A stretch of DNA of 31,818 nt from an uncultured Gammaproteobacteria bacterium (GCA_938021685.1 CALIFM010000185.1:1-31818); one strand, 5' to 3'. Counted from the first letter of the stretch, positions 15,363 to 31,818 are shown. A program made the numbers and translations. Notes: generated from the sequence alone by a model not told the origin.

Positions 15363-16010
15363 TTATCCTACTGGGTCGTCGCTAAGAAAATCATATCCTA
15401 GCTGCTTCATCAAATCAGCATTTAGGCTTTGCTTAATGATGTCCTGTTCTTGCTGGTTGAGTTGCGGCAATTCAGTGACCTGCTGATAGTCTTTCTTTTG
15501 CTCGCCAAAGCCATTCACATAGCGCTCAAAAGGCTTGAAGTCCGTCTGTGGTGTGTTTTCGCCCAGCTCAATTTGTAACTTAGCAAATATATCGGCTTGG
15601 TCGGCGGCGAGCTCTTCAGCCTTGATGACCATACCATGCGGTACTTCTTCTAATAAGCGCAGATAGGCGTGGTATTTTTGATTCCACATTTGCAGCACGT
15701 TTTCATAATCTTCAATTGAGTGCTGCAAGAAAAATACAAATGGTAGCTTTTGCAGCATCGGCATATGCTGGTTATAGGGATCACGGTGCATCGCTTTTAG
15801 CCAAGAGTAGGGGTTGCGCACAGTGACCACTACCAAAGTTTGAGATAAATCACGCTTGCGCCATTCTTTCTGCTGCGGTGCAAGGCGGTGTTTCCAACCT
15901 AAAAAGCCATAGTCAAGCAGACGCTGAGAGAAGTTTTGCTGGATAAGCCCTGCGGCGGCGTTACTGGCGGTGTGGCGCTCGCCAAAAATTTTGATTTGCT
16001 CGATTCCCAT
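15363..16010 (-). CDS. Sulfotransferase-like protein (short P-loop fold)
   Basis: KIFGERHTASN (5'-PSB-like), GWKH, VTVRNPYSWLKAM (3'-PB-like), IKAEEL. Confidence 0.62.
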   Translation of the reverse strand: MGIEQIKIFGERHTASNAAAGLIQQNFSQRLLDYGFLGWKHRLAPQQKEWRKRDLSQTLVVVTVRNPYSWLKAMHRDPYNQHMPMLQKLPFVFFLQHSIEDYENVLQMWNQKYHAYLRLLEEVPHGMVIKAEELAADQADIFAKLQIELGENTPQTDFKPFERYVNGFGEQKKDYQQVTELPQLNQQEQDIIKQSLNADLMKQLGYDFLSDDPVG

Positions 16011-16027
16011 AACCGTATTGTAGTCGA

Positions 16028-17146
16028 TTAAGCGCGCAAGTCGGGGCGGCCAATTTGGCGGAGCATCAAATAAATATGCTGCGTTTTGTAGGCTAGAGAG
16101 CGCCGCAAAAAAAAGCGCATAATCCAGCGCGAGCGCAAACTAGGATATTGATTGCCTGCAAGGCTGCTGTGGACTATCTTTAATGTGAGTGTAGACAAAG
16201 CACTTAGTTTATAAGCGTTGAATGCAGCAGGTGGTGTTTGCCCAAACAGGCTGTGCGACAATTGCATCGCCAGTAGCGTGGGTTGCAGCAAGCCAGTTTT
16301 TTTAAGCTCATTTGCCAGTGCTTGCCAGTCGAAGCCTGTTTCGTGTGCAACCGTCGCTGCATTGTGCCAATCAAGCAGCCATTTAAGGCGGCCCCACATC
16401 GCCATGCTGCCATGAATGGGTAGATAGCGTAGATACAGAGGTAGTGAAAAGGTGGTGTAATCATGGCCGTGTAGCTGTACGGTGCTTAATGCAGCGCTGG
16501 CCTTTGCAAAATCAATATTGTAAGCATGCTTGTTCTTATCAAGCCGCCAATGCAGTTCCACTTCAACATGTGGCTTTTGGGGCGACAATAACACTTTGTC
16601 TTTGCGCACTTGTAAAGTTTCACGCCGCTGCTTAGTCTTTTGGGCGGTGATCTGTGTACCAATGGCGGTGTATCCAGCATCAATCAAAGCAGCTTCAGTG
16701 CGCTCTATATCATCAATGGCTACCCATATATCCAAATCTTTGCTATATCGACTAGAGCTGGATGCGCTCAATTGCTGTGACAATAATATCCCTTTGAATG
16801 GGATATAAACGATTCCGTGCTCACCTAATACTTGGTCGAGATGCTGCAATGTGGCTTGTTGTGCCAGTAGCTTAAATTGCATTTCGTGAAATTGCCGTTT
16901 TAAGGGCTGTATCAAGGCCTTAGGCAAGTGTTGAGATTGATCTTTAACCGCAAACCAAAACGGAATTTGCAAGTGATGCCAACGCAGCGCTTGCAATACT
17001 TCATCAGTGTCAAAGGCGGCTAGCTTTTCGAGCAGCGCAGAGAGATTGTCAGTGGTTGAAGCTTTTATGTTGACCGTAATTACCCTGCAAATCAGTGGCA
17101 GCGGGCCAGTGATAAGTTGTGAAGCTTGGGTGTTTTGCTTGGGCAC
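16028..17146 (-). CDS. Uncharacterised nucleotidyltransferase family protein (NTP_transf_5-like)
   Basis: YIPFKGILLSQQL, RYSKDLDIWV (DxD), EVELHWRL, HGSMAMWGRLKWLLDW. Confidence 0.82.
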   Translation of the reverse strand: MPKQNTQASQLITGPLPLICRVITVNIKASTTDNLSALLEKLAAFDTDEVLQALRWHHLQIPFWFAVKDQSQHLPKALIQPLKRQFHEMQFKLLAQQATLQHLDQVLGEHGIVYIPFKGILLSQQLSASSSSRYSKDLDIWVAIDDIERTEAALIDAGYTAIGTQITAQKTKQRRETLQVRKDKVLLSPQKPHVEVELHWRLDKNKHAYNIDFAKASAALSTVQLHGHDYTTFSLPLYLRYLPIHGSMAMWGRLKWLLDWHNAATVAHETGFDWQALANELKKTGLLQPTLLAMQLSHSLFGQTPPAAFNAYKLSALSTLTLKIVHSSLAGNQYPSLRSRWIMRFFLRRSLAYKTQHIYLMLRQIGRPDLRA

Positions 17147-17188
17147 TTTGTCGATGTAATTTAGGGCGATGATTTAATAGTGAAATGC

Positions 17189-18091
17189 CTAAGCAAGCTG
17201 CACATCAAAGTCTAATTTTGCAAGTTTTTTTGCAATTGGCTGCATGCCTAGATAGCGCGCTAAAAATATGTTTTGTGGGCATTGCACGTTCACATTTACG
17301 GTAGAAAATGCCGAAAATAAGCCGCTGGCACCTTGCTCGCTGAGGTATTGCTCGGCAGAATGATGAGTTTGAATTACTTCAAATATATCACTTAGCCAAG
17401 GCCGTTTTTGTTCACGCGGGTGGGGCAAATAGTTAACCGGTTGGTCTTTAAAATAATCCCTTAGTTTTTGTCGATAATGTGCTTCGTTAATGAGGGCGTC
17501 TTCAATCAGCGGTTGACCAATATAAACCAATTTTCCTGACTTAAGTGCAGTGACAGGGTAGTGTAAGTTATGATGGCGAAAACGGTCGCGTACTTGCAAT
17601 TGCTCGCCTCGGTAATTAGTGTCAAACAAGCCGCTTCGATAAAACCCCGCTGCCCATTTGGCCCACTCTTTTAAACGGTAGCGTTTTAGCATCGACTCCA
17701 TGCGCAAGTAATGGTTGAGGCCATCTTCCCACAGCTCCACTCGCTCTGGTCCTGCGTGATCGATAATAAAGCGAGTTATAGGTGTGTAATTGGCAGTTAA
17801 TATAAAGCGACAATTCGGGTGTTGAGCAATGAGATTTTTAATCAACATCGCCACACGTTCGTAGTAAGCGCGGTTGTTTGCGATAGAAAGCAGTGGTCGG
17901 CTTTGCTCAGTGCCAATCTTATGAATGGTATGGGTTAGCGCGTCGATACCGGCTTTTTCCAATGCGCCGTTGTTGCGGTAGTCAATTGCTGCCACCACTT
18001 GCCGAGGATTATGCTTTAGTAAAGCCAGCAGATGGGTACCCATTGGTACAATCACAACCGGTGCTGTTGTGGCGGCTTCGGTGTTTTTCAT
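17189..18091 (-). CDS. Sialyl/nonulosonyl-transferase-like glycosyltransferase (GT38/GT52/GT80-type motifs)
   Basis: ELWEDGLNHY (E-D-G motif), YIGQPL, YLPHPRE (HP motif), SAFSTV; directly downstream of neuB. Confidence 0.68.
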   Translation of the reverse strand: MKNTEAATTAPVVIVPMGTHLLALLKHNPRQVVAAIDYRNNGALEKAGIDALTHTIHKIGTEQSRPLLSIANNRAYYERVAMLIKNLIAQHPNCRFILTANYTPITRFIIDHAGPERVELWEDGLNHYLRMESMLKRYRLKEWAKWAAGFYRSGLFDTNYRGEQLQVRDRFRHHNLHYPVTALKSGKLVYIGQPLIEDALINEAHYRQKLRDYFKDQPVNYLPHPREQKRPWLSDIFEVIQTHHSAEQYLSEQGASGLFSAFSTVNVNVQCPQNIFLARYLGMQPIAKKLAKLDFDVQLA

Positions 18092-18131
18092 TACTAAGTT
18101 TTGAATGCAGCCTAAGCTTGCTTAGCTGTTT

Positions 18132-20396
18132 TCATGCAATCAACTGTGCCGCCATATTGGGCTCCAAGTGCTCAAAGGCTTGCCAAAAGCCTTCGCCACG
18201 GTTTTTATGTCCCTGCCAAATTTCAGGAATGAACATCACATTGGGCACGTGTTGTGCCAAGCTCTGGCCTAATTGCAAAAAATCCACGTTGCCTTCGCCC
18301 ATTTGTACGCCTTCGCCGCTATCGCCGAGGGCATCAGAAATATGCAGATGGGCAGTGTAAGGACCAACGGCATCAATAAACTCATTTAAAGACCAGCCAT
18401 AATAATTGCAGGCCATCATAGAGTGAGAGATGTCTAAGCAAATGCGCATTTTATTCTGCTTACAAAATTGCACGATCTCGTTTGGGTCGACAAATAAGTT
18501 GTGGTAGCGTTGGCCGCCGAAATGCCATGGGAAAGGCGGCATTGTTTGGACAATCACCTCCACCCCTTCTTGGTCTACTTGGCCAAGTTGCTTAGCAATT
18601 TGCTGATAAAGGGCGGGGCGCTCATCGGCGGCCATGAAACTTTTTTCAGTGAAACCACCTGCGTTGAGCACGATTACGGGCCGTTTAGTGGCAGGGAAAT
18701 AGCTTTTTAACTTTTGTGTTACTGCGATAGTTTGCTGCAAATTAGCGCGTGAGGTTTTCAAATAGCTTTTATCTTTCGAAGCTAAGTCAATTATATGGTC
18801 ACCAGCAAACAGCTCGGGTGCATGCACGGCTAAGCCCAGGCCTTGTGGCTCATCAAACACGCTGTCTATATCGACTTCTAAGTCTTGATAGCTTAAGTGA
18901 AACTCGACAAAATCTAGATTCGATAAATCAGATAGCTTGGCATAATCGTGGTAGCGCACTGGGATGCCGAAAGGGCGGTCGAAGTAATAATTACGTGCTT
19001 CAGTGATCGCGCCGTCGATGTCTGTTTGAAAGAAAAAGTCACCAGCATCAATGTCGCGCACTGCTGCTTTGCCAAGCAGGTCAGGTAGTAAATAAGGCTG
19101 TAAGCCTTGGCCTGGACTTTTGATTTCAATCATCTCGCGGGTGATACGCTCGCCTTTGGTAATCGTTGTTTTAGCAATCAAGCTTTTTGCCAAGGTTTCG
19201 CGATTCATCATCTCGCCTTGGCTGAGGCTGCGTTCAGATGCGTTGCCCAAGGCGGTCTCGATATTGCGAATTGATTGCACCATTTGCGCAAACTCATTTG
19301 GTAAGAGACTCACTTTGTGATCGTTGCCCTCCATGCCTTTGTCTAAGGTGAAATGTTTTTCAATCACGCGTGCACCCATGGCGACAGCTGCCACTGAAGT
19401 ATCAACTCCTAATTCATGGCCTGAATACCCAACTAGGCCGCCGCCGATTTGCTTTAAGCGCTCAAGATAGCGCAGATTAACGTCTTTTAAAGGTGCAGGA
19501 TAAGTTGAATTGCAATGCAACAGCACGAACTGCGTTGCGTGCTGATTGAGAAAATCTACCGATTGTATAATTTCAGTTTCGGTACACATGCCCGTGGAGC
19601 AAAGCAAAGGCTTGTTCGTTTCCGCCATCGCCTTTAGCAAGGGCAGATTGGTAAAGTCTGCCGATGCCACTTTGTAAGCGGGCATGCCGTAACCCTCTAG
19701 CACCGCGAGTGAAGTCTGATCCCATGGAGTGCATAGCGGAGTGACGCCTAAAGATTTGCAGTAATCGAAAGCTTCGATCAACTCGTCGTTGCTTAGCTGA
19801 AATTTCTCTAGTAAGTCAAAGACATATTGCGCGCCGAGATCAGCCGAATCATCACGAGTTTGGCCTTGGTTTTTATATACGCTGGCCATGTCACGCATTT
19901 GAAATTTTACGCAATCGGCGTTCGCAGCAGCAGCAGCATCCACTAGTTCTTTGGCATGTTTTAGACTGCCGTTGTGGTTGTTACCAAGCTCAGCAACGAT
20001 GTAGGTGGGTGTGGTTTGACTTAGCAAATGGCCATCAATGCTAATGCCTTCAAGGCCTTTTATAGCAATGGCTTTAAGCCGGTTTCCGGTATCCACCAAC
20101 GGCAGTAAATTGAACGAATCCTTGAAGCTCATGGCCAATGTGGCCGTAGAGCTATCAACCAGGCAGGCGGTAAACTGAGTATTCATCGCCTCGCTAACGG
20201 CGATGCTTAAGTCAGTTTGTTTGCTGTTAGTCAGCCACCGCCTGAAGTCACCATCGCTGAGTACACCGACTAGACAGCGATTGTTGTCAACAACAAACAC
20301 CGTACCAGATTTGTTCGCATCAATTTTCAGCAGGCAATCTGCCAGCGGAGAGGAATTGAGGACCAGATAAGCGTCTAAGTCAGAGATGATTTGCAT
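18132..20396 (-). CDS. neuB: Multidomain nonulosonate synthase: CBS pair + NeuB + SAF + xylose-isomerase/AP-endonuclease-2-like TIM barrel
   Basis: CBS: VGVLSDGDFRRWL; NeuB: YIVAELGNNHNG, VKFQ, KVASAD, LLHCNSTYPAP, GYSGHE, IEKHFTLD, DHKVSL; SAF: KSPGQGL; TIM barrel: VEFH, CLDISH, HLHISD, FIPEIW. Confidence 0.9.
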   Translation of the reverse strand: MQIISDLDAYLVLNSSPLADCLLKIDANKSGTVFVVDNNRCLVGVLSDGDFRRWLTNSKQTDLSIAVSEAMNTQFTACLVDSSTATLAMSFKDSFNLLPLVDTGNRLKAIAIKGLEGISIDGHLLSQTTPTYIVAELGNNHNGSLKHAKELVDAAAAANADCVKFQMRDMASVYKNQGQTRDDSADLGAQYVFDLLEKFQLSNDELIEAFDYCKSLGVTPLCTPWDQTSLAVLEGYGMPAYKVASADFTNLPLLKAMAETNKPLLCSTGMCTETEIIQSVDFLNQHATQFVLLHCNSTYPAPLKDVNLRYLERLKQIGGGLVGYSGHELGVDTSVAAVAMGARVIEKHFTLDKGMEGNDHKVSLLPNEFAQMVQSIRNIETALGNASERSLSQGEMMNRETLAKSLIAKTTITKGERITREMIEIKSPGQGLQPYLLPDLLGKAAVRDIDAGDFFFQTDIDGAITEARNYYFDRPFGIPVRYHDYAKLSDLSNLDFVEFHLSYQDLEVDIDSVFDEPQGLGLAVHAPELFAGDHIIDLASKDKSYLKTSRANLQQTIAVTQKLKSYFPATKRPVIVLNAGGFTEKSFMAADERPALYQQIAKQLGQVDQEGVEVIVQTMPPFPWHFGGQRYHNLFVDPNEIVQFCKQNKMRICLDISHSMMACNYYGWSLNEFIDAVGPYTAHLHISDALGDSGEGVQMGEGNVDFLQLGQSLAQHVPNVMFIPEIWQGHKNRGEGFWQAFEHLEPNMAAQLIA

Positions 20397-20485
20397 GGTT
20401 TTTATCAGCTTAATTGAGCATCAGACAAGTTCTTAGCATACATGAGTATGGCCTCTGTGATGGCTTCGGTTAAAGCTGTTAGGTT

Positions 20486-21367
20486 TTATAGGCCCAACCA
20501 AGCACGTAAGCCGTGCTTTTTAGGGCGCTCTGCTGTATTTGATGGGCTTCGTTTTTTTGAAAGATTATCAGCTTGGCTAATTACCGGTGTCATTAGTGGC
20601 TCCCCGTTTAATAAGCGCTTAGGGTTGCTATAAAATAAGGTATTGGCGGCCTTAATGCCAAAGTGCTTACACACATAGTCATAGGCATTAGCTAAATTAG
20701 GTGAGCGTCCATCAACGCGGTGAGCATCTGAGGCCACAATATGCACGCAGCCGTTAGCTAACCAATGATTTGCTACTTCTTGAATAGGTGGCCCAAAACG
20801 ACCAGTTAAGCTCAGTGCGGTTAGCTGCGTTTTACAGCCCCATTCGATCCAGTCGTATAAAATTTTGGGGTCACGAGCCAAGTCACCATTGCGTTCAGGA
20901 TGGGCAATAACCGGTGTGATGCCCATATTAATACAAGTGCCCAAGATAGCCTCCACGCCGAGCGGCAGGTGTTGCTTAGGCAGCTCAATAAGCGCTGCTT
21001 TTTTTTGGTCAGCATAGGTTAAAACTTGGCCCTGTCTTATTTGTTCAGGTAGCTCAGGGGTGAGATGCAGCTCAGACCCTAAGTGCAAACGGAGAGGGAT
21101 TCTTTGTTCAGCCAGCTGTTCTTCTAATTTCTGCTTTGCCGTGATGATGGCATCGTAATAATTGCTAAAGGCGCCGTTGCCATGGTGAGGAGTCAGTACC
21201 ACATCCGTGACGCCACAATTGACAGAAACCTGCGCCATTTGCAAAGCCATGTCTATGCTGGTTGCGCCGTCATCAATGTCGGGCAGCATATGGTTGTGGC
21301 AATCAATCATGCGCACTGCATTGCTTACAGCATTACTGTTCGGATCATATAAAATTTCTTCGCTCAT
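20486..21367 (-). CDS. PHP-family tyrosine-protein phosphatase (CpsB/CapC/YwqE type)
   Basis: IDCHNHMLPDIDDGA, LTPHH, GSELH, IAHPERN, VASDAHR. Confidence 0.9.
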   Translation of the reverse strand: MSEEILYDPNSNAVSNAVRMIDCHNHMLPDIDDGATSIDMALQMAQVSVNCGVTDVVLTPHHGNGAFSNYYDAIITAKQKLEEQLAEQRIPLRLHLGSELHLTPELPEQIRQGQVLTYADQKKAALIELPKQHLPLGVEAILGTCINMGITPVIAHPERNGDLARDPKILYDWIEWGCKTQLTALSLTGRFGPPIQEVANHWLANGCVHIVASDAHRVDGRSPNLANAYDYVCKHFGIKAANTLFYSNPKRLLNGEPLMTPVISQADNLSKKRSPSNTAERPKKHGLRAWLGL

Positions 21368-21373
21368 CTGTTT

Positions 21374-22789
21374 TTAGTACGCCGTTTTGGTAATAAAACC
21401 TTTGAACACGGTAAGGATTATAATCTTAATATCAAGCCAAATTGACCAGTTACGGATATAAAAAATATCATGTTCAACACGTTGCTCGATGCTGGTGTTG
21501 CCGCGTAAGCCATTAATTTGTGCCCAGCCGGTGATGCCCGCTTTAACATAATGTTTTTGCATATACTCAGGCACAGTGTATTGGAATTTCTCAACAAAAA
21601 ATGGTCGTTCAGGGCGTGGGCCCACCACTGACATGTCTCCCATCAGCACATTAAAAAACTGTGGCAACTCATCCAGACTGGTGCGGCGTAAAAAACTACC
21701 AAATTGAGTGGCACGGTTTTCACCTTTTTTGGCCCAAACGGGACCGCTATTTTGCTCTATACTTATAGGCATAGATCGGAATTTAAGCATCGTAAAAGGC
21801 CGGCCATTCAATGTTAAGCGCTCTTGGCGAAACAGCACTGGACCGGGTGAGCTGAACTTGACCCCAATGGCAATCAGCAAGAGAAGCGGTGACAGTAATA
21901 TCAAAACAAGTAGTGCAAAGCTGCGATCCATCAGTGATTTCAGCCAGCGATCTGCTGAGCGTAGTGGTTTTACTGATAGGCTAAGCATAGGTAAGTCAGC
22001 GCGGCGTTCTAACTCTGGGCGCAATATCGGCAGAAAGCTAAAATCAGGGAAGTAGCTAATTTGAATTAAGTTAGATTTGAAATGGCTGATAATATCGCGC
22101 ACACTGTTGTTGTCCAATTGTGCCCCCACTAACCATAATTGTTGAGTATTAGCGTCACTGATAAATGCATCTATCTTTTTCAGTTGGGCGGCATTGCTAG
22201 TTTTCTTTGGGCCCTTTTTACCTTGCCAATCCCAGCGACGTACGCTGCGGTAAGCATATGGGGCTTGATCGACTAGGCGATCCACTGTGGTGTTAAACTT
22301 GGGGCCGGTTCCAATGGCCAATACATCCAATTTAGATGCTGCATGGCTGGTGTCTAAGCGGGCTTTTTGGTCTAGGCCAATACGCCAGATCAAGCTAAAT
22401 AAATAGCTTAGGAAGATGGACACTAAGAACCAAGTGCGGGAGTAGGTATAATTGGTTTTTGACACCATGGCGATTAAAGCAATGGAAGAAATAATCACAA
22501 ACCAGCTAATGGACAAGCGACGCAGCACGTTCCACGAAAAAATGGAGCGACCGCCGTCATATAAACCAAAGGCTGCGGTACATAGCAGCACCACTAATGA
22601 CACCACTATGATAGGCGTGATATAGGCCTTAAGGATTAGGGGTTCGCTGCTGGTCAAAGCGATGACAGAAAGCACGCCCCAGCAAATTAAAGTTGTTGTC
22701 AGCACATCAAGAATGGCTAACAAGTACAAATTAGATGTGCGTTGTAGCCTGTAGGTAAGACCGGCAGAAGAATCAGTTTCTGGCAGCAT
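21374..22789 (-). CDS. wcaJ: Undecaprenyl-phosphate glucose phosphotransferase (priming glycosyltransferase)
   Basis: Four N-terminal TMs; SPGPVLFRQER, KFRSM, FLRRTSLDELPQFFNVLMGDMSVVGPRPER, VKAGITGWAQING, DIFYIRNWSIWLD. Confidence 0.9.
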   Translation of the reverse strand: MLPETDSSAGLTYRLQRTSNLYLLAILDVLTTTLICWGVLSVIALTSSEPLILKAYITPIIVVSLVVLLCTAAFGLYDGGRSIFSWNVLRRLSISWFVIISSIALIAMVSKTNYTYSRTWFLVSIFLSYLFSLIWRIGLDQKARLDTSHAASKLDVLAIGTGPKFNTTVDRLVDQAPYAYRSVRRWDWQGKKGPKKTSNAAQLKKIDAFISDANTQQLWLVGAQLDNNSVRDIISHFKSNLIQISYFPDFSFLPILRPELERRADLPMLSLSVKPLRSADRWLKSLMDRSFALLVLILLSPLLLLIAIGVKFSSPGPVLFRQERLTLNGRPFTMLKFRSMPISIEQNSGPVWAKKGENRATQFGSFLRRTSLDELPQFFNVLMGDMSVVGPRPERPFFVEKFQYTVPEYMQKHYVKAGITGWAQINGLRGNTSIEQRVEHDIFYIRNWSIWLDIKIIILTVFKGFITKTAY

Positions 22790-22942
22790 AGCTTGCGAAG
22801 AATAAAGCCTTTATTTTGATCAGCACTAAATTACATAATGCACGGTGATCTATTAATAGAATTGGGCTTTTATTCTAGCACAAGTATCAATGAGTTATTA
22901 TCAAGCCCTTATATTGTTTTATTCTATGATACGGGCTAGTGT

Positions 22943-24382
22943 TTACGAGCGCCCATAAAGATCTTCAAAGCGTACAATATCGTCTTCACCAAGGTAGGCG
23001 CCTGATTGTACTTCGATGAGTTCTAGTGGAATTTTGCCGGGATTTTCTAATGAGTGGGTTGTGCCAACTGGAATATAGACGGATTCATTTTCGCCGAGTA
23101 GCCGTTCTTCATCTCCTACGCGTACTTTTGCTGTCCCATTAACCACGACCCAATGTTCCGCACGGTGGTGGTGCATTTGTACGGATAGTTTTGCGCCAGC
23201 CCGTACAGAGATACGCTTAACTTGAAAGCGATCACCGCTGTCCATTGAGTCGTAGTGGCCCCAAGGCCGGTATACCACACGGTGGTGGGTTGCTTCGGTG
23301 CGTGTTTGCTGGTTAAGCCAATCAACCACCTTTTTGACTTCATCAGCATGCGGTTTGCTGGCGACGAGTAAGGCGTCCTTGGTATCAACGACTACAAGGT
23401 CGTCCACCCCTAGCATAGCTACCAATTTGTCTTCTGTACGCACTAAGTTGTTGTGACTGTCTACACATAGAGTGTCGCCTGAAGTAGCATTACCGTCATT
23501 ATCTTTAGGTAAGACTGAAGCTAAAGCGGCCCAGCCGCCGACATCGCTCCAACTGGCTTGCATTGGCATCACAAACGCTTTCTGGGTGTGCTCCATCACC
23601 GCATAATCAATCGAATCGCTAGGGCATTTTTCAAAGGCATCAACGCCAATCCGGATAAACTCAAGATCGATGCTTTGGTCTTGCCAAGCTTGCTTGCAAC
23701 AATTCACAATGTCATTATTGTGTTTGCTGACTTCAGCCAAAAAATCGTTTGCATAAAACATAAACAAGCCGCTGTTCCAAAGATAGTCACCGCTGGCAAG
23801 ATATTTTTCAGCTGTTTTTTGTTCGGGCTTTTCTACAAATTTCTCAACTGCATTGAGCGCACCCTGCTTAAGTTTTTTGGTTTTAATATAACCATAGCCG
23901 GTAGCAGGGCGGTCAGGGTTAATGCCAAATGTCACCATTTGACCAGCCTTAATTTGGCCAGCGGCGGTTTGTACAGTTTGACTGAAGCTTGTTTCATTAG
24001 CGATATGGTGGTCGGCGGGTGATACCAGCAGTAAAGGGTTGTCATGCAGCTCCAATGCGCGCAAAGCTGCTAAGCAAATTGCCGGTGCAGTGTTGCGACC
24101 AAAAGGCTCGAGTATTAAGCCGCTATGCACGCAGTCAAGTTGGCGAAGTTGTTCGGCAGCAATAAAGCGATGCTCTTCATTGCAAACCACAATGGGTGTA
24201 TATAGAGCTAAATTTGCGATACGTTGCACTGTTTGTTGTAGCAAGGTGTCGGTGTGCTGCTTGTTATTGCCGCTTGTGGTTAGCGGCAAAAATTGTTTGG
24301 GGTACATGCGTCGTGAAACAGGCCATAAACGTGTGCCAGAGCCGCCGGCGATAATAACGGGCTGTATAGGGCTTTTTTTCAT
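22943..24382 (-). CDS. manC: Mannose-1-phosphate guanylyltransferase / mannose-6-phosphate isomerase (start probably ATG 24382; ORF extends to 24409)
   Basis: PVIIAGGSGTRLWPVSR..YPKQF, EPFGRNTAPA, FVEKP, WNSGLF, SIDYAVME, WSDVG, cupin RPWG, QMHHHRAEHWVVV, IEVQSG. Confidence 0.95.
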   Translation of the reverse strand: MKKSPIQPVIIAGGSGTRLWPVSRRMYPKQFLPLTTSGNNKQHTDTLLQQTVQRIANLALYTPIVVCNEEHRFIAAEQLRQLDCVHSGLILEPFGRNTAPAICLAALRALELHDNPLLLVSPADHHIANETSFSQTVQTAAGQIKAGQMVTFGINPDRPATGYGYIKTKKLKQGALNAVEKFVEKPEQKTAEKYLASGDYLWNSGLFMFYANDFLAEVSKHNNDIVNCCKQAWQDQSIDLEFIRIGVDAFEKCPSDSIDYAVMEHTQKAFVMPMQASWSDVGGWAALASVLPKDNDGNATSGDTLCVDSHNNLVRTEDKLVAMLGVDDLVVVDTKDALLVASKPHADEVKKVVDWLNQQTRTEATHHRVVYRPWGHYDSMDSGDRFQVKRISVRAGAKLSVQMHHHRAEHWVVVNGTAKVRVGDEERLLGENESVYIPVGTTHSLENPGKIPLELIEVQSGAYLGEDDIVRFEDLYGRS

Positions 24383-24564
24383 CGCTATTGTGTTGTTTGT
24401 GATATGCACTAAAATTTGATTAAAGCGTGACTTTAACCAATTACCGAGTAAACAGCCACTGCTCTGATAGCTAAAGCTTCAGGCGCAATGCTGGAACAAC
24501 AAGATCATATCTTGCTTGTAGGTGCTCTATTTTTGAGGCTCAGTCCAATGGTGTGCACGGTTGC

Positions 24565-24632: not shown

Positions 24633-25757
24633 TTGGAGCAGCAATTAGCAGCACAAACTCAGCACTTGCAACATCGCTTGCAAAACCTAAGCAGTAAAAT
24701 TCGCCGGCAATTAGCATTGCCGCAACCGATGCGCGATGCCGGAATGATCACCTTTTTGCGTCAAGAGATTAATGTCTACCAGTTTGCGTTAGCGCAGCTT
24801 GAGCAGTTAAATGGTACACGAGTGGCATTGGCAGACCCATTAGGTTATGGCAGAGCGAAAGACATGTTGTCACCGCTTGCTAGCGGTAACCGCAGTAAAG
24901 GAAGTGCGGTGAGTGCCAACAATAGTGATGTGTTGCGTATTGGTGTGTTTGGGGGGTTAGGCGATGTTTTGTGCGTGACGCCGGCTTTGCAGGCACTAAA
25001 AAAAGCCAGGCCACAGCGTGAATTGCATTTACAGCTAAATGCAGAGCCGCACTTAGCTATATTTAAAAACAACCCCGATATTGACCACATAAGCGTGCTA
25101 AAACGCGGTAACAACAAAAACCAAAAGAAGCTAGATATCGAAGTATCAGTGGGTTTTCTCGGTACAGATATTCACTATCGTGAGCATGCGGCCTTTTTGC
25201 TAGCTGCAGCCTTAGGGGTGAGCATTGATAGCGAGATACCACGCTACTTCATAGGTGAAAGCGAGCAAGCTGCAGCCCAACAAGCACTAAAAGGTATCGG
25301 CTCATTGGTGGTTATTTCGCCTACATCACGAGCGCCGGCTAATCAAAACTGGCCCTTGCAGCGCTGGCAATCCTTGATGGCGTTGTTTCCTGATGTGACC
25401 TTTGCGCAAGTTGGCCTGCCAGATGAAGAAGTTATTGAGGGGGCTTTAGATTGGCGTACCGCGCAAGATGTGCGGTCATCGGTAGCTAAATTGGCAGTCG
25501 CCGGTGCTTATGTGGGAATGGACACGTTTTGGGCACACGCTGCGGCGGCAGTCAGCACCCCTGCCGTAGTGTTTTTTGGCGGCACTCATCCCAGTGTGTT
25601 TGGTTATCCTGGGCACGCTAAATTGTATAAGCACTTACGTTGCTCGCCTTGTCATCATACCTTGGCAGGGCGCCACTGCCCATACAACACTGAATGCATT
25701 AATGACATCACGGTGGATGAGGCTGCGCAAGCATTGCGTGAACAGCTGGCTGTTTAG
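24633..25757 (+). CDS. GT9-family glycosyltransferase with ~100-aa N-terminal extension
   Basis: GGLGDVLCVTPALQALK, WPLQRWQ, MDTFWAHAAAAVSTPAVVFFGGT, C-terminal CSPC..C..C; TTG start with AGAGG RBS. Confidence 0.85.
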   Translation: MEQQLAAQTQHLQHRLQNLSSKIRRQLALPQPMRDAGMITFLRQEINVYQFALAQLEQLNGTRVALADPLGYGRAKDMLSPLASGNRSKGSAVSANNSDVLRIGVFGGLGDVLCVTPALQALKKARPQRELHLQLNAEPHLAIFKNNPDIDHISVLKRGNNKNQKKLDIEVSVGFLGTDIHYREHAAFLLAAALGVSIDSEIPRYFIGESEQAAAQQALKGIGSLVVISPTSRAPANQNWPLQRWQSLMALFPDVTFAQVGLPDEEVIEGALDWRTAQDVRSSVAKLAVAGAYVGMDTFWAHAAAAVSTPAVVFFGGTHPSVFGYPGHAKLYKHLRCSPCHHTLAGRHCPYNTECINDITVDEAAQALREQLAV

Positions 25758-25831
25758 TGCTTATGCCTGCTGCTGCGGCCCTTTGTTAAGGCTAGTTTAA
25801 TACCAATTGCAGTGCTAGAATTAGTATTCTG

Positions 25832-25859
25832 AGGCGAATATCGATTCGCCTTTTCTTCT
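25832..25859 (+). terminator. Rho-independent terminator after the GT9 gene
   Basis: AGGCGAAT-ATCG-ATTCGCCT perfect 8-bp stem followed by TTTCTTCT. Confidence 0.7.
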
Positions 25860-25909: not shown

Positions 25910-27073
25910 ATGCTAATACCACGCATGCCTAGCTCTTCATTGATTGATTCGACTTTGCTAATTTGCATGCAATGCAAAACACCTTTGCAGGCTGCCCACC
26001 AGGCTTACCAGTGTAGTGAATGCGAGCGACTATATGATGCAGGTAAGGCACAAGATATACCATTGCCAATTGCCTTTTTTGAGGAGCCTAAACAGGTCTA
26101 TGCTGATGCTTATTTAGGTTTTTATCGCGCCTACAAGCATTTTGATCAAAAGGCCGTTCAACTGACCGAAGGCTTGAAAAAAAGTGGGCGAAAAAAGGAA
26201 TTACTGCCTGTATTAAAGGCATTCAAAGACAATCAAAAGTATTTTACAAGATTCGCAGAGGCATTAGCGCCCAGTGTAGATTTGCCTACCTTGTTAGAAA
26301 AAGCAGGTAAAAACGCGGGACAAAAATATGGTTATGACTTTAATTATCTTGAGCGTGATTGGTCACAGCAACCCCGAGCGCAGCTTGAGATTAGCAATTT
26401 GATGTCGATTGTTCAAAAAGCGGTTAAGCACTGCTCAGGCGAACATGCAGTGGTACTTGGCGCGGGCATGGGTCGCTTGGCAACGGAACTAAAAGCACAT
26501 CACAAGCAGGTTACGGCCATCGAAAACTCGCTTGGGCAGATTGCCCAGTTTTATGCTTTGTTACAGCAGCCTAACCATTTTTGGCGAGTGAACACAATCA
26601 ACACGCGCAAGGACAACGATTTGCTGAAAAAAGTAAACTTGCAGATACCTAAAGCGTTGCTGGCGGATGCAAAGTCAGTGGATTATATATGGGCTGATGC
26701 TTGCAACAGTCCTTTAGCCGATCGCTCGGTGGATGTGTTGTATTCAATTTATTTTTCAGATGTCGTGCCATTAACTAAGTTGCTTGCTGAAAGTAAGCGC
26801 TTGCTTACTGAGGGCGGTTGTTTTGTGCATCTTGGCCCATTGCATTATCATTTTTCTGACATCACTCAACATTACAGCCTAGAGACTTTTTGTGCACAGC
26901 TTGTGCAGCATGGTTTTGTATTGCAGCATCAATCTGAGCATGAGCCTGTCAATATAGATGATGAGGGCTTGCAACGCTCGCAGCAGTATTTCAATGCGCT
27001 GATCGTGGCAAAGTATGATTCTGCCCAAGACCAACATGCCGAAGATAAAAGCTCGGTGACTGAATCGAGCTAA
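25910..27073 (+). CDS. Class I SAM-dependent methyltransferase, N2227/carnosine N-methyltransferase-like, with N-terminal CxxC..CxxC Zn ribbon
   Basis: CMQC...CSEC; YLERDWS; motif I VVLGAGMGRLATEL; YSIYFSDV; GGCFVHLGPLHYHF. Confidence 0.7.
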   Translation: MLIPRMPSSSLIDSTLLICMQCKTPLQAAHQAYQCSECERLYDAGKAQDIPLPIAFFEEPKQVYADAYLGFYRAYKHFDQKAVQLTEGLKKSGRKKELLPVLKAFKDNQKYFTRFAEALAPSVDLPTLLEKAGKNAGQKYGYDFNYLERDWSQQPRAQLEISNLMSIVQKAVKHCSGEHAVVLGAGMGRLATELKAHHKQVTAIENSLGQIAQFYALLQQPNHFWRVNTINTRKDNDLLKKVNLQIPKALLADAKSVDYIWADACNSPLADRSVDVLYSIYFSDVVPLTKLLAESKRLLTEGGCFVHLGPLHYHFSDITQHYSLETFCAQLVQHGFVLQHQSEHEPVNIDDEGLQRSQQYFNALIVAKYDSAQDQHAEDKSSVTESS

Positions 27074-27078
27074 GCACG

Positions 27079-27831
27079 ATGCAAGGCTATATTTGGGATT
27101 CAGAATTTAGCACTAAGTTCGCTAAGCAATACTGGGAGCAACGCCCCTGTGTGTTTGATTATCCCGCTAAACAAGCGATTGCTAATTTAGATGAGTTGTT
27201 TCACGCAGTGGTCAACATGCCCAGCCGCGGCCCATCGGATCGTTTTTGGGTGGCCAAGAGCGTTCCACCGAAGCGCTACGATGATTTTCGTAATATTCAA
27301 GGAGAGGGCATTAATTTATTCGGCCCTAAAGCCGATGATGGAAATTTAATGGGCTTTTTTGAACGCATGAATGGCCGTCACTTTGGGTTTAATTCGCACA
27401 AACTTGGGGCAGGTTTACCAGTGATTGATGAACGCATGAAAGCAATCGTGCTAGGCTTACAGCAAGCGGGTTTGCCGCTTAAACCGCAGCAACGCGGCTG
27501 GGTAAGCGACACGTTTTTTGGCACCTATCACGCCACACCCTTTGGCATCCATCGTGACCCTGCTAGTGTGTTTTCGCTGACCTTGTTGGGTGAGCGTACT
27601 TATTATACTTGGCCGATGGACTACTTCCCCCTTGGTCATAAAGATTTGCAATGCCCAGATAACAATGCGATTAAGCGCCATATCCCGAATGCAGAGGTGT
27701 TTAAGCTTAGCCCCGGGAAAGTATTTTACTGGCCGTCTAATCGTTGGCATGTGGCCACGTCGAATGGCCAGCCTACAGCGGTGGTGCAGATGAGCACTTA
27801 CTTTGATTCTAAAGACGTTAATCAAGCTTAA
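27079..27831 (+). CDS. JmjC/cupin-type Fe(II)/2-oxoglutarate oxygenase
   Basis: QYWEQRPCVF start typical of Cupin_4/ROXA-like proteins; TPFGIHRD (HxD); LSPGKVFYWPSNRWHVA (distal His). Confidence 0.75.
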   Translation: MQGYIWDSEFSTKFAKQYWEQRPCVFDYPAKQAIANLDELFHAVVNMPSRGPSDRFWVAKSVPPKRYDDFRNIQGEGINLFGPKADDGNLMGFFERMNGRHFGFNSHKLGAGLPVIDERMKAIVLGLQQAGLPLKPQQRGWVSDTFFGTYHATPFGIHRDPASVFSLTLLGERTYYTWPMDYFPLGHKDLQCPDNNAIKRHIPNAEVFKLSPGKVFYWPSNRWHVATSNGQPTAVVQMSTYFDSKDVNQA

Positions 27832-27842
27832 GAGTAGCGTAG

Positions 27843-28751
27843 ATGTATCAATATAATGCCTTTGGTTTAAAAATCAGTTGTCAGTGGCCATTGTTTCAAT
27901 TGCCAACAGTTAATTTTGCTAGCAGTGAAGCACAAGTGACGATTGCGCGAGGTCGTGTAGATGATACTCGCTTTAATCAAACCGAAAAAGGTGAGCATTT
28001 TCAAGTATATGAGCAAGGCCGCCTTGCTTTTATGCAAGTGCGCGAGGTCGCCAACTTCTTGATTGAAAACGGCACGACGATTACTGTGGATGTGGATCAA
28101 GAAGCGGTCATGCAAACCGTTAATTTATATTTGCTTGGTTCGGGTTTGGGTACGATTTTGCATCAACGTGGTAGCCTGCCTTTGCACGGCAATGGTATCA
28201 ATATTGATGGGCATGCGGTGATTGTGACCGCGCATAGCGGAATAGGAAAATCGACCTTGGCCAGCGAGTTTTATCGCAGGGGTTATTCTTTATTGGCGGA
28301 TGACGTTTGTGCGGTTAGCGCTGAAAACGAAGTGCAGCCAAGCTATCCATTCTTGAAGCTGTGGCAAGAAGCGATTGACCGTTTAGATCTGCCCAAGGCT
28401 GATTTAATTCAGATCATGGCGCAAAAAGAAAAATTCTATGTGCCTTTAGGTGTGCAATTTAATACAAGCTCATTGCCTCTTAAATCAATTTACATATTGA
28501 TGCGGGGCGATATAGACTCACCGGAAATGAAGCCCTTAAAGGGGGTGAATAAACTGTTGATGTTACGTCCCCAAATTTACCGTTTGCATTATTTACGTTG
28601 CTTGGTTAAAGGTGCGCCAGCAATGGACCGGATGTCAGAGCGGCTAGGAAATATCCCTGTTTTTCATGTCGTGAGGCCGGTGGAAGGGATGCATGTTGAG
28701 CAAATTGCCGATATGATTTTGGCCAATGAAGCTGACAGCGGTTCAACCTAA
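27843..28751 (+). CDS. HPr-kinase-like kinase 1 (type found in phosphorylated lasso-peptide clusters)
   Basis: YNAFGLKI start, LYLLGSGLGTILHQRGSLPLHG, Walker A AHSGIGKST, LLADDV, PFLKLW. Confidence 0.82.
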   Translation: MYQYNAFGLKISCQWPLFQLPTVNFASSEAQVTIARGRVDDTRFNQTEKGEHFQVYEQGRLAFMQVREVANFLIENGTTITVDVDQEAVMQTVNLYLLGSGLGTILHQRGSLPLHGNGINIDGHAVIVTAHSGIGKSTLASEFYRRGYSLLADDVCAVSAENEVQPSYPFLKLWQEAIDRLDLPKADLIQIMAQKEKFYVPLGVQFNTSSLPLKSIYILMRGDIDSPEMKPLKGVNKLLMLRPQIYRLHYLRCLVKGAPAMDRMSERLGNIPVFHVVRPVEGMHVEQIADMILANEADSGST

Positions 28752-28768
28752 ACACCGCGTAAGCATTT

Positions 28769-29734
28769 ATGTCTAATTGTTACACTGCCTTTGGCTTATG
28801 CTTGCACTCAGATCTTGAACTGGTGCCTTTACAGGCTTGTCAAGACGCTGCTATTAACTTACCCGTTATACGTATCGAACAAGGTGAAGTAAGCAACACG
28901 GGTTTAAAAAATACACAGTCTAGCTTGGTGTATTGTGATGTGGTGGCTAACACGGTTTGGTTGCGTATTCCAAATGTTGCACGGTTTTTAATCGAGAATG
29001 GTGACCATGTAACTTATGAAGCAGAAAGGATCATTGCCTCGTTTGATGATGAAGATGGCAGGATGGTTAGCAATGAAGTTCAGTTAGTGCAAATAGCGCT
29101 GTATATCCAATCGCATTGTGTTCCTTATATTTGTTTGCAGCGTGGGCATCTTGTGTTACGCGGTAGCGCGGTGCGTTTTGGTGAGCAGTGTGCAGTTTTT
29201 TGTGGACCCGCTTCAAGTGGTAAAACTACTTATGCGGCGGCCCTTTATAACCGAGGCTTTGATGTAATAAGTGATGAGGTATGCGTGTTTAATGAGCACA
29301 ACGAAGTGTTGGCAGGCTATACTTATTTAAAGGTGTGGCACGATGTTTTGTCTTACTTGCGCCTTGAGCCCACTGATTTTTCGCCGCTATTTCCTGGTAT
29401 CAACAAATATGTTTTCCCGCTAGAAGCAGCCCAAGCAACTACAGCATTGCCGGTTAGCGCAATTTATTTGCTTTATCAGGACTACATTAAAGAGTGGCAT
29501 ACCAAGCCAGTGCGTGGTTTGGGAAAATTGAATTATTTAAAATCACCTAGCCATGCTTACCGCCCTGGGGTGCGTTCTAAGTTAGGCTTACCAGATCTAA
29601 TTGTTCAGCAAACAAGGTTGATGCAAGCCGTGAGCATAATTAAAACCAAGCGGCCCAAGAGTATTCGTGCAATTCGTATGTCACAGCAGCTACAGTTCTT
29701 TATCGATGACATGGGCTTGGGTGTTGATGACTAA
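28769..29734 (+). CDS. HPr-kinase-like kinase 2, with altered catalytic motifs
   Basis: YTAFGLCL start, ARFLIENG, LVLRGSAV (His to Arg), Walker A GPASSGKTT, VISDEV (DD to DE), YLKVW. Confidence 0.78.
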   Translation: MSNCYTAFGLCLHSDLELVPLQACQDAAINLPVIRIEQGEVSNTGLKNTQSSLVYCDVVANTVWLRIPNVARFLIENGDHVTYEAERIIASFDDEDGRMVSNEVQLVQIALYIQSHCVPYICLQRGHLVLRGSAVRFGEQCAVFCGPASSGKTTYAAALYNRGFDVISDEVCVFNEHNEVLAGYTYLKVWHDVLSYLRLEPTDFSPLFPGINKYVFPLEAAQATTALPVSAIYLLYQDYIKEWHTKPVRGLGKLNYLKSPSHAYRPGVRSKLGLPDLIVQQTRLMQAVSIIKTKRPKSIRAIRMSQQLQFFIDDMGLGVDD

Positions 29735-30683
29735 AGAAATAAATACTCAATATGACCAAGCGCGCCTTGTCTTGCTAGCGTCTTACCCGAAGTCTGGTAA
29801 CACATGGCTGCGCAGTTTTTTAAGCGCGCTCAATGTGTACGACCCATTGGCGGAACAACAGTTTACTGAGCAAGCCGCAAGTGATCCGCTTGACGATGAG
29901 ATTGACATGAACAAGATTCATCTTGGGACCCAACTATTTTCTCGTGAAGAAATTGAAGTACATGCGGGTTTTGACACCACAGATTTGACCGAAGCGCAGT
30001 TAGCCCATCTTCGAGTTGTTACTAATCGTCATTATGCCCAAGCTATTCCGATGGGCCAGGTTGGATACATGAAGGTGCATGATGCCTATACCGTGTTCGA
30101 TAACGGTGCATGCTTGTTTGACAAGCAATATGTCAAAGGTGTGGTTTATATCGTGCGTAACCCGTTGGATGTGGTGATTTCATACGCCAATCAATCCAGC
30201 TTTAGCATTGATGCAAGCATCGCCCATTTTGGCAGTGACCAAACATTGGGGGTAGACGAAAAAGCATATAGTGCCGAGAGTTCGGCGCGCCGCTGGATTT
30301 CGTCCTGGTCTGGTCATGTGCAGAGCTGGACAAGCGGTCATCCTTTGCCTTATCTGTTGGTGCGCTATGAGGATATGAAAAAACGAGGCATCGACACTTT
30401 TATGCAGGTCGTGCACTTTTTAAACTTAACTGCCAGCGAAGAAGAAGTGGCAAAAGCTTTGGACAAAGTGGCGTTTGAAAAATTCGCAAAACAGGAGAAG
30501 GAAAAACCTTTTGTGGAATCGGAATCGAATCCTGACGGATTTTTTCGCAAAGGCATCGTAGGGGATTGGCGTGAAGTGTTAAGTAGCGCGCAAATCAGCC
30601 AAGTCATCAGTGATCATGGTGAAATGATGCATCAGCTGGGCTATGTGGATGAATACGGTAAGCCTACACAGCTGATTTGTTAA
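29727..30683 (+). CDS. PAPS-dependent sulfotransferase (Sulfotransfer_1 type); start reassigned from 29667 to ATG 29727
   Basis: LASYPKSGNTWLR, KVHDAY, YIVRNPLDVVISY, WSGHVQSW, VRYEDM, FFRKGIVGDW; ATGACTAA overlap with kinase 2. Confidence 0.9.
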   Translation: MTKEINTQYDQARLVLLASYPKSGNTWLRSFLSALNVYDPLAEQQFTEQAASDPLDDEIDMNKIHLGTQLFSREEIEVHAGFDTTDLTEAQLAHLRVVTNRHYAQAIPMGQVGYMKVHDAYTVFDNGACLFDKQYVKGVVYIVRNPLDVVISYANQSSFSIDASIAHFGSDQTLGVDEKAYSAESSARRWISSWSGHVQSWTSGHPLPYLLVRYEDMKKRGIDTFMQVVHFLNLTASEEEVAKALDKVAFEKFAKQEKEKPFVESESNPDGFFRKGIVGDWREVLSSAQISQVISDHGEMMHQLGYVDEYGKPTQLIC

Positions 30684-30776: not shown

Positions 30777-31655
30777 TTATATTTCATGGCCTACATTTTC
30801 ACTTGTTTTAGCTTTGCGCCCATTTTCTCTTTTTAAAGTTTGTGCTGCATGCGGGCAAGTGCCACTATCAAGTGGTAATTCATCAAAGCTTGGTTTTTCA
30901 GGTAAAACGAGAGGGCATTTGTTCGGCGGCTCATTATTAGTAATAGGTAATGAATATTGATTCCATTCTGATTCTCCTATTTGGTAGTGTCCTAATAAGT
31001 GCGAATGCTGGATCTTGTCATACTCGTCGATGTTTGATCTAATCTTGTTTCTTATATTAATGCCCTTTTTCTCAAAGGCGCTTGCGACGATATCAAATCT
31101 TTTTCTTGGATTTATAACAAGTACTAAGGTATCGCAAAGGTTTCTGCTTTTTCTCAGTCGGTGTGCTGGATGGCTGACATTTATAAAGAGGGGTGTCTGT
31201 TGAAAGCAAAAACTCCAGAAAGGATCACTGGGGTCTGTGGGTAAATCATCAGGCCACCGTTGGGTGTCAGAATCGATAAGGTACTGCATAGCGCCGAAAG
31301 CAATGTCTTCATAAGCAGATTTATCATACTGTTTATTATTATTAGATTCAAAAATGACTAACAACGGTTCAGCTGAATTAACGTCTCCAGCCCATTTTGA
31401 GCAGCGTTTAAGATATAATTCTATGCCTTTTTTTAATTTTGAAAAGTTATGGTTACCTGATGGATTTAACTCAATGGGAAGAAAGCATAAAAGCTCTCTG
31501 GCACAAGCATTACGAGAAAAAACGCATGGAAAAGGTTTTTCTGAGCCTGTTAATAAAGATATAATGTTCTCGATGTGGTGAGCACACCATGCGTTTTTAG
31601 TGTTTTCGCCGTGGTCAAAAGTATTTTTAGATAGTTCAGTTTGTAGTAGCAACAT
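30777..31655 (-). CDS. YqcI/YcgG-family protein (family includes heme-dependent guanidine N-hydroxylases)
   Basis: FPCVFSRNA, EPLLVIF, WPDDLPTDPSDPFWSFCF, LFINVSHPAH..RKSRNL, LVINPRKRFD, EWNQY. Confidence 0.85.
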   Translation of the reverse strand: MLLLQTELSKNTFDHGENTKNAWCAHHIENIISLLTGSEKPFPCVFSRNACARELLCFLPIELNPSGNHNFSKLKKGIELYLKRCSKWAGDVNSAEPLLVIFESNNNKQYDKSAYEDIAFGAMQYLIDSDTQRWPDDLPTDPSDPFWSFCFQQTPLFINVSHPAHRLRKSRNLCDTLVLVINPRKRFDIVASAFEKKGINIRNKIRSNIDEYDKIQHSHLLGHYQIGESEWNQYSLPITNNEPPNKCPLVLPEKPSFDELPLDSGTCPHAAQTLKRENGRKAKTSENVGHEI

Positions 31656-31760: not shown

Positions 31761-31818
31761 ATGAACAAAATAACCAAGAGAGAGTCAGAAGTTTTGGCTA
31801 TCCTAGAAGAAGATGCGC
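31761..31818 (+). CDS. Probable Lrp/AsnC-family transcriptional regulator, N-terminal fragment (runs off the window)
   Basis: Translates MNKITKRESEVLAILEEDA(R), matching the usual 'D..D..IL..L..DAR' Lrp/AsnC start; divergent from the YqcI/YcgG gene; only 19 codons visible. Confidence 0.55.
   Translation, partial: MNKITKRESEVLAILEEDA

Follow-up and report, generated by a model that had tools for sequence, protein, structure and literature searches.

The window analysed here is a stretch of 31,818 nucleotides (GCA_938021685.1 CALIFM010000185.1:1-31818) that forms contig C185 of the metagenome-assembled genome of an uncultured marine Gammaproteobacteria bacterium (2.29 Mb, 316 contigs, 89.6% complete). 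At positions 25910-30683 it carries a cassette of five enzyme genes, which we consider likely to be the tailoring module of a kinase/sulfotransferase-type lasso-peptide system, that is, a system for a peptide that is made by the ribosome and modified post-translationally (RiPP), spread over several loci of the genome. An earlier reading made from the sequence alone had described the cassette as an orphan, stand-alone operon. Its account of the layout was reproduced exactly: five packed open reading frames (ORFs) on one strand, with intergenic gaps of 5, 11 and 17 nt and an 8-nt overlap between the stop of the fourth gene and the start of the fifth. The terminator that it placed upstream was recovered by a consensus scan, and only as a consensus match, as a hairpin with a 9-bp stem, four G-C pairs and a T-rich tail that follows a GT9 gene (24633-25757). 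Profile and fold searches agreed that all five products are group-transfer or oxidation enzymes. The features are:

25910-27073, plus strand: methyltransferase (MT) of the CARME/N2227 type (PF07942)
27079-27831, plus strand: JmjC-type Fe(II)/2-oxoglutarate (2OG) hydroxylase (AlphaFold model, Foldseek)
27843-28751, plus strand: K1, HPr-kinase-like lasso-type peptide kinase (PF07475)
28769-29734, plus strand: K2, a paralogue of K1 without the catalytic His (identity to K1, alignment)
29727-30683, plus strand: sulfotransferase (ST) of the 3'-phosphoadenosine-5'-phosphosulfate (PAPS) type, ATG at 29727 (PF00685)
25831-25852, plus strand: terminator-like hairpin between the GT9 gene and the cassette (consensus match only)

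The order MT-JmjC-K1-K2-ST, whose recurrence had been left to be checked, is also found at L024 (a 189-kb ENA contig), L025 (a 3.6-Mb contig) and L048 (JGI). L049 and L050 contain JmjC-K1-K2-ST, with the MT gene on another contig of the same sample. Gene junctions are short or overlapping at every locus compared, and the cassette is a discrete, conserved and rare unit.

Elsewhere the same genes are physically clustered with lasso core genes, namely those for the cyclase (C), the PqqD-type B1 protein and B2. Locus L026 has one block of formylglycine-generating enzyme (FGE), B2, C and FGE genes and another of K2-ST-B1-MT-JmjC-K1. Locus L023 has MT, ABC, B1, 2OG oxygenase and B2 genes, divergent from K1 and a homologue of a 215-residue protein encoded in the window. 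At L024/L032, the cassette lies 3.5 kb from genes for C, B1, B2 and an ABC exporter, and the interval contains transposase and reverse-transcriptase debris. The proposal of a stand-alone, undescribed system does not survive these three cases, where its genes lie inside or beside lasso clusters.

The kinase family was found in 31 genomes out of 401 that were sampled from the phylum. All 12 kinase loci fetched from species genomes adjoin lasso-cluster genes, the cyclase gene being beside the kinase in 11; the kinase gene is directly followed by ST in 10, and genome G440 has the order K-K-ST-B1-B2. These proteobacterial loci indicate that K-K-ST is an ordinary, biochemically unstudied lasso module, to which the MT-JmjC pair is a rare addition. 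The statement that the combination was undescribed therefore stands for MT with JmjC, for which no description on lasso peptides was found in the literature searched, and falls for the kinases and ST.

The window itself has no match to PqqD, Transglut_core3 or lasso-type Asn_synthase, and the cassette is separate from any core gene there, as the sequence-only reading had said. A search of the remaining genome for B1, B2, C, PqqD and short precursors, which it had proposed, recovered the core genes and two candidate precursors. Contig C227 encodes a cyclase (C227:2103-4058, minus strand; PF00733, 95-96 bits, plus GATase_6/7) that is 48% identical to the L024 cyclase, together with B2 (C227:453-1040; PF13471, 58 bits) and an FGE-like protein. 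Convergent with these three genes is a 5'-truncated JmjC paralogue (27.3 bits to Pfam JmjC_2), 40% identical to the cassette enzyme. B1 is encoded at the start of contig C83 (C83:72-362; PF05402, 64.5 bits) and is 47% identical to the L024 B1; it scores 76.1 bits against lasso_PqqD_Bac, below the cut-off of 80. The base composition of the core-gene contigs fits a single genome. Cyclase, B1 and B2 are thus all found at the level of the genome, with C185, C227 and C83 separate in a fragmented assembly, and tailoring and core genes are not clustered here. With a lasso core elsewhere in the genome, which is largely the outcome that the sequence-only reading had named as contrary to its claim, the cassette is not an orphan.

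Genes with the FGE-sulfatase domain recur with this lasso subfamily (C227:1098-2036, minus strand; L024:6862-7878; L026:1455-2378; L026:5560-6525), and the C227 copy has an N-terminal membrane segment. Assignment of the FGE-like gene as an OvoA/EgtB-type sulfoxide synthase was considered and rejected, given E-values of 7e-15 to formylglycine-generating enzymes versus 3.8e-4 to EgtB. A separate PqqD-family gene, above the PQQ_PqqD cut-off, is flanked at C88:1056-5242 (L002) by three paralogous proteins of 120-160 residues with Tat-like N-termini (RRNLLKGAAWSAPVVL...LPKHAQA) and Ser/Thr-rich tails. Its neighbourhood showed no pqqA-E genes, and this is possibly another peptide-modification locus.

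MT scores 48.8 bits against CARME PF07942 (cut-off 27) and has the class I S-adenosylmethionine-binding motif of that family. Among ten homologues, both this motif (G184xG186xG188) and the cysteines of an N-terminal zinc ribbon, CxxC...CxxC (C19/C22/C35/C38), are invariant. A profile made from ten homologues places human CARNMT1 (5yf0, E 1.3e-11) first among solved relatives, ahead of OvoA, OvsM and OvoM, and all four are histidine-imidazole N-methyltransferases. From these relationships we infer that MT is a peptide-His N-methyltransferase, with His as the methyl acceptor. Close relatives are rare: 400 sampled genomes of the class gave one distant match, and about six clusters (50% identity) were found among 1.8 billion representatives. 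A scan of the genome_contigs collection with the MT alignment gave no match, and four further MT contexts are contigs too short to be informative. A larger and more distant branch of the family (460-490 residues, ~30% identity; L027, L041-L047) adjoins LanB-type dehydratases or 730-residue ABC transporters, another RiPP context, which suggests that MT belongs to a general RiPP tailoring family.

The JmjC protein scores 21.9 bits against Pfam JmjC_2, for which the cut-off is 22, and its family profile had no significant match to PDB sequences (E 0.14), so that the assignment was settled by the fold search. The AlphaFold model (pLDDT 90) has as its best Foldseek matches YxbC (1vrb, E ~4e-11), NO66 (~1e-10), FIH, YcfD and MINA53, all residue hydroxylases. 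The facial triad of the JmjC hydroxylase fold, HxD...H (H158, D160, H224), is invariant in six homologues. MT and the JmjC enzyme probably modify His or other side chains.

K1 scores 36.5 bits against Hpr_kinase_C (PF07475, cut-off 33.3), and alignment shows an intact His-Lys-Asp-Asp motif (LHGN, GIGKS and LLADD), which defines lasso-tailoring kinases (PMC9266682). K2 is its paralogue in the HPrK-like clade (28% identity, tblastn E 8e-27). Neither is a true HprK/P: the score against TIGR00679 is 35 bits versus a cut-off of 240, and the alignment is confined to the P-loop region. A search of 40 relatives gave no close homologue of K1. In the window K2, Arg replaces the catalytic His (LRGS) and Asp-Glu replaces Asp-Asp (SDE), and the protein lacks the lasso-kinase motif. 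The His-to-Arg change is common only to the L026 copy, other K2 orthologues having kept the motif, and it is thus an old, retained state.

ST matches PF00685 with 95 bits (E 6.4e-27), and its PAPS motifs, YPKSGNTW, H118 and RNPLD, are invariant in six homologues. In all six loci compared K2 is directly followed by ST, with junctions of -8 to +11 nt, and this adjacency is kept even in the rearranged L026 locus. Complex prediction gave the K2-ST pair a score of 0.70, compared to 0.00 for the best control; as high a score was obtained for 58 of 80 complexes of solved structure and for 2 of 110 mismatched pairs, counts that apply only roughly here because custom alignments were used. The prediction supports K2 and ST as putative binding partners.

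Candidate substrates emerged from a family of small peptides ending in Gly-Pro-Ser (GPS). Members lie upstream of the L024 cyclase and upstream of the G440 kinases; three copies occur in genome G453 and three beside a methyltransferase on L034. They share a W/Y-x-x-P-x-hydrophobic leader motif, comparable to the YxxPxL leader motif of lasso precursors (PMC10368454), a Gly/x-Lys, an invariant Glu and a C-terminal Ser, the residue that lasso kinases phosphorylate (PMC8498205, PMC9266682, PMC10368454). In K-ST and K-K-ST lasso clusters too, the precursors end in Gly/Pro-Ser. A profile built solely from peptides of other genomes ranked C269:9355-9546 (E 2.4e-4) and C40:1589-1873 (E 3e-4) as the best two of 37,322 six-frame segments of this genome; the third match had an E-value of 0.38. 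Like the cluster-linked peptides, both ORFs (C40:1604-1873 and C269:9355-9546) have the WxxPx-hydrophobic motif, the invariant Glu and the C-terminal GPS, and we take them as candidate substrates. The profile gave no match in the window, C227, C83 or C61. It also found a candidate 3 kb from the L049 cassette.

Other searches of this kind were uninformative. Known lasso precursor models (NF033524, NF033521) gave only sub-threshold matches inside other genes of this genome. A pattern search for Thr(-2), Gly/Ala/Ser/Cys(1), Asp/Glu(7-9) and a C-terminal Ser, and another for YxxPxL at fixed spacing, returned only antisense or in-gene artefacts, and the matches of an all-against-all BLAST between small ORFs of different loci were dominated by alternative reading frames of homologous genes. 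A correlation of precursor His content with the presence of MT was rejected, His being found also in precursors of clusters that lack MT. At L026:8920-9120 (minus strand), an ORF of the precursor family has an in-frame stop between the leader (MKQQKLIWQKPKVIALFSAKLKGSG) and the GPS-ending core, which could reflect an assembly error, a pseudogene or read-through. A PhyH-family Fe/2OG dioxygenase gene (C40:294-1211, L095; E 1e-28) is located 390 nt upstream of the C40 candidate precursor, which is followed by a HlyU-like regulator; the dioxygenase is a possible further tailoring enzyme.

Taken together, we propose the following scheme. A small precursor with the W-x-x-P-x-hydrophobic leader, invariant Glu and C-terminal Gly-Pro-Ser would be made away from the cassette (the C40 and C269 candidates), and its leader would be bound by the PqqD-type B1 of C83. 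K1, like PadeK, ThcoK and SyanK, would then phosphorylate the linear precursor at its C-terminal Ser, and this is its most likely activity. K2, co-produced with ST and predicted to bind it, would probably act as a peptide-binding adaptor for PAPS-dependent sulfation. MT would N-methylate a His side chain, and the JmjC enzyme would hydroxylate the side chain of His, Asn, Asp or Arg. The B2, FGE-like and cyclase proteins of C227 would then take off the leader and close the ring, and a nucleotidyltransferase of the NTP_transf_5 family, encoded 10 kb upstream of the cassette, may place a sugar on the phosphate.

Several observations weigh against assigning the cassette to a lasso system. The E-values of the candidate precursors are modest (~1e-3 to 1e-4), and in several members the ring-forming Glu is off the Gly1-Glu7-9 register, its distance from the presumed core start being variable. 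The C269 copy has no ATG, GTG or TTG ahead of the W-x-x-P leader motif. The genome yielded no dedicated exporter. The cassette, core genes and candidate precursors are spread over five contigs whose ends do not overlap, so that the cassette is linked to the core by the genome bin only; a search for exact end overlaps between C185, C227, C83, C61 and C7 found none. Lastly, L025, L048 and L049 have no lasso core within ~8-10 kb of the cassette, which may therefore not always serve a lasso pathway.

At these three loci the cassette lies among housekeeping genes, and at L049 the candidate precursor 3 kb away is present without a cyclase. Such contexts fit a cassette whose target in trans is either a ribosomal peptide that is linear and not a lasso, or a protein at full length, and which is found only sometimes beside lasso genes, as do the nearest structural relatives of the JmjC enzyme, which are ribosomal-protein hydroxylases, and CARNMT1, which also methylates protein His, as the nearest solved relative of MT. 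However, three independent loci interleave or join cassette genes with C, B1 and B2, the genome at hand has core genes with a JmjC paralogue, and the kinase relatives fetched from species genomes sit in lasso clusters without exception, and we regard a non-lasso target as unlikely. Action in trans on a peptide, protein or glycan had been proposed for the cassette; a peptide encoded elsewhere is the most likely of the three, and a glycan the least supported.

The scattered core genes, the missing catalytic His of K2 and the lack of a canonical start codon in the C269 peptide could also be taken to mean that a lasso cluster came apart in this lineage and that the cassette is what remains of it, silent or in decay. 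This is the least probable explanation that we considered: the five frames are intact and full length compared to homologues (28-61% identity), the motifs for catalysis and cofactors do not vary, operon spacing is kept across loci, and the His-to-Arg change of K2 is shared with L026 and hence old and retained. Just upstream of the C269 ORF (C269:9340-9400, L096:2340-2400) is a run of six A, and with one base less the frame would open at TTG and read MKNIKRIWHKPSII. The absent start codon would be explained by a homopolymer error or by ATA or ATT serving as a rare start codon.

Upstream of the cassette in the window is a minus-strand operon (15363-24409) with two genes, about 10 kb from the cassette, that are lasso-associated elsewhere and had been missed by the sequence-only reading, one for the NTP_transf_5 protein and one for the 215-residue sulfotransferase-fold protein. 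The operon comprises:

15363-16010, minus strand: 215-residue sulfotransferase-fold protein, last gene of the operon (Foldseek, homologue in L023)
16028-17146, minus strand: NTP_transf_5 nucleotidyltransferase of the PsmN family (PF14907, E 6e-39)
17189-24409, minus strand: sugar genes encoding GT52-like, NeuB fusion, CpsB, Bac_transf and ManC proteins (Pfam)

Among the 12 K-type lasso clusters that were fetched, 7 contain relatives of the NTP_transf_5 gene, and a relative also lies at the end of the L032 supercluster. PsmN glycosylates the phospho-Ser of pseudomycoidin by addition of a hexose (PMC8498205, PMC9266682). The 215-residue protein has no Pfam match. All top-50 Foldseek rows for its model (pLDDT 84) are sulfotransferases, with E-values of only ~2e-3; its family is widespread in marine metagenomes, and the L023 homologue (49% identity) directly follows K1 in that lasso locus. 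The NTP_transf_5 protein is a probable member of the same system as the cassette, the 215-residue protein a possible or probable one, and the remaining sugar genes are possible members. Bac_transf is present in 3 of the 12 fetched clusters (L086, L090, L093), as is ATP-grasp in 3. The same set of sugar genes follows the lasso core on L032. Between the two genomes the sugar proteins are 57-75% identical and the cassette and core proteins 28-48%, so that the shared sugar neighbourhood may be inherited synteny.

This neighbourhood raises two further explanations. The cassette could decorate a polysaccharide (capsule, lipopolysaccharide or nonulosonate glycan) made by the ManC-Bac_transf-NeuB-GT52 operon and GT9, adding methyl, phosphate and sulfate groups. 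The cassette does adjoin glycan genes, on L032 these sugar genes are again found together with the cassette and the lasso core, and PF00685 sulfotransferases include carbohydrate-specific enzymes. However, kinases of the HPrK-like clade, JmjC hydroxylases and CARNMT/OvoM-type methyltransferases are known to act on peptides or amino acids, the cassettes in L025, L026, L048 and L049 have no sugar genes nearby, and the higher identity of the sugar genes (57-75% versus 28-46% for the cassette genes) fits inherited synteny and not a shared pathway, making this very unlikely. Alternatively, the cassette and the divergent ManC-Bac_transf-CpsB-NeuB-GT52-NTP_transf_5-sulfotransferase-like operon would jointly build a sulfated nonulosonic-acid glycan on the C-terminal phospho-Ser of a lasso peptide that also has an N-methyl-His and a hydroxylated residue, K2 being the pseudokinase adaptor that provides ST with its substrate. 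The glycan would possibly be assembled on, or transferred from, a lipid carrier. To this joint reading we give a small chance; if true, the resulting glyco-phospho-sulfo-peptide conjugate would have no described counterpart.

Other genes around the cassette are recorded here. The NeuB fusion (18132-20396, minus strand) has four domains (CBS, NeuB, SAF and a xylose-isomerase-like TIM barrel) and is 74% identical to the product of L032:16959-19196, encoded on an unrelated metagenomic contig where ManC and Bac_transf are again its neighbours. A second NTP_transf_5 gene follows a 5'-truncated Pfam-less ORF at a contig end (C61:3-1566, L030), beside a GT4 glycosyltransferase gene, and this region may be another fragment of the same system. 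Convergent with the ST gene is a gene for a YqcI/YcgG family protein (30777-31655, minus strand; PF08892, E 5e-46) that weakly matches the guanitoxin N-hydroxylase GntA (E 5e-11); the gene is missing at other cassette loci and is therefore probably unrelated. At 31762-31818 (plus strand) is the start of a gene cut by the contig end (MNKITKRESEVLAILEEDA), with the look of a LuxR/GerE-type helix-turn-helix protein, which could be a regulator of the neighbourhood.

Returning to the proposed lasso-tailoring module, its closest characterized counterparts are the phosphorylated-lasso clusters with HPrK-like kinases, those of paeninodin (PadeK), ThcoK, SyanK (Sphingobium yanoikuyae) and BsfK (Bradymonas sediminis). 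This genome shares with them a YxxPxL-like leader motif, split B1/B2 and an Asn-synthetase-like cyclase. It differs in that the kinase genes lie away from the core genes, that there are two kinase paralogues, one without the catalytic His, and that an ST, a His-methyltransferase-like enzyme and a JmjC hydroxylase are added, for none of which is there a demonstrated lasso product. As in the pseudomycoidin cluster (PsmK and PsmN), a kinase gene and an NTP_transf_5 gene are found in one genome region, but here the latter is 10 kb off, on the other strand and inside a ManC/NeuB sugar operon.

Dedicated tailoring enzymes that hydroxylate or methylate linear lasso precursors are already an established concept: CanE is the Fe/2OG beta-hydroxylase of canucin A, and StspM and LasF are C-terminal O-methyltransferases of lassomycin-type peptides. 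In contrast to CanE, the hydroxylase here is JmjC/cupin-4-like (a relative of NO66, FIH and YcfD), and in contrast to the carboxyl O-methyltransferases StspM and LasF, MT resembles CARNMT1 and OvoM, which points to imidazole N-methylation. In the uncharacterized proteobacterial K-ST and K-K-ST lasso clusters (L083-L094), a kinase gene is followed, often with an overlap, by a PF00685 ST gene, but these clusters are compact and have no MT-JmjC pair. What is new here is the pairing of a CARNMT/OvoM-like MT with a JmjC enzyme, the predicted pseudokinase-ST complex, the scattered layout and the GPS-ending precursor family.

Reports of ST genes in lasso clusters go back to at least 2014, and no demonstrated sulfated lasso peptide was found in the literature searched. 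The cassette offers a compact, conserved five-gene set with which lasso sulfation can be tested, together with a checkable idea of how it works, namely that the peptide is handed to ST by a kinase paralogue whose catalytic site has degenerated. The cassette would also bring imidazole N-methylation and JmjC-type hydroxylation, neither of which has so far been reported for a lasso peptide. More generally, tailoring, core and precursor genes of RiPP systems can be scattered, and mining based on gene clusters would miss such systems or mislabel them as orphan; the family with the W-x-x-P leader and C-terminal GPS provides a search handle for the substrates of the whole group of clusters.

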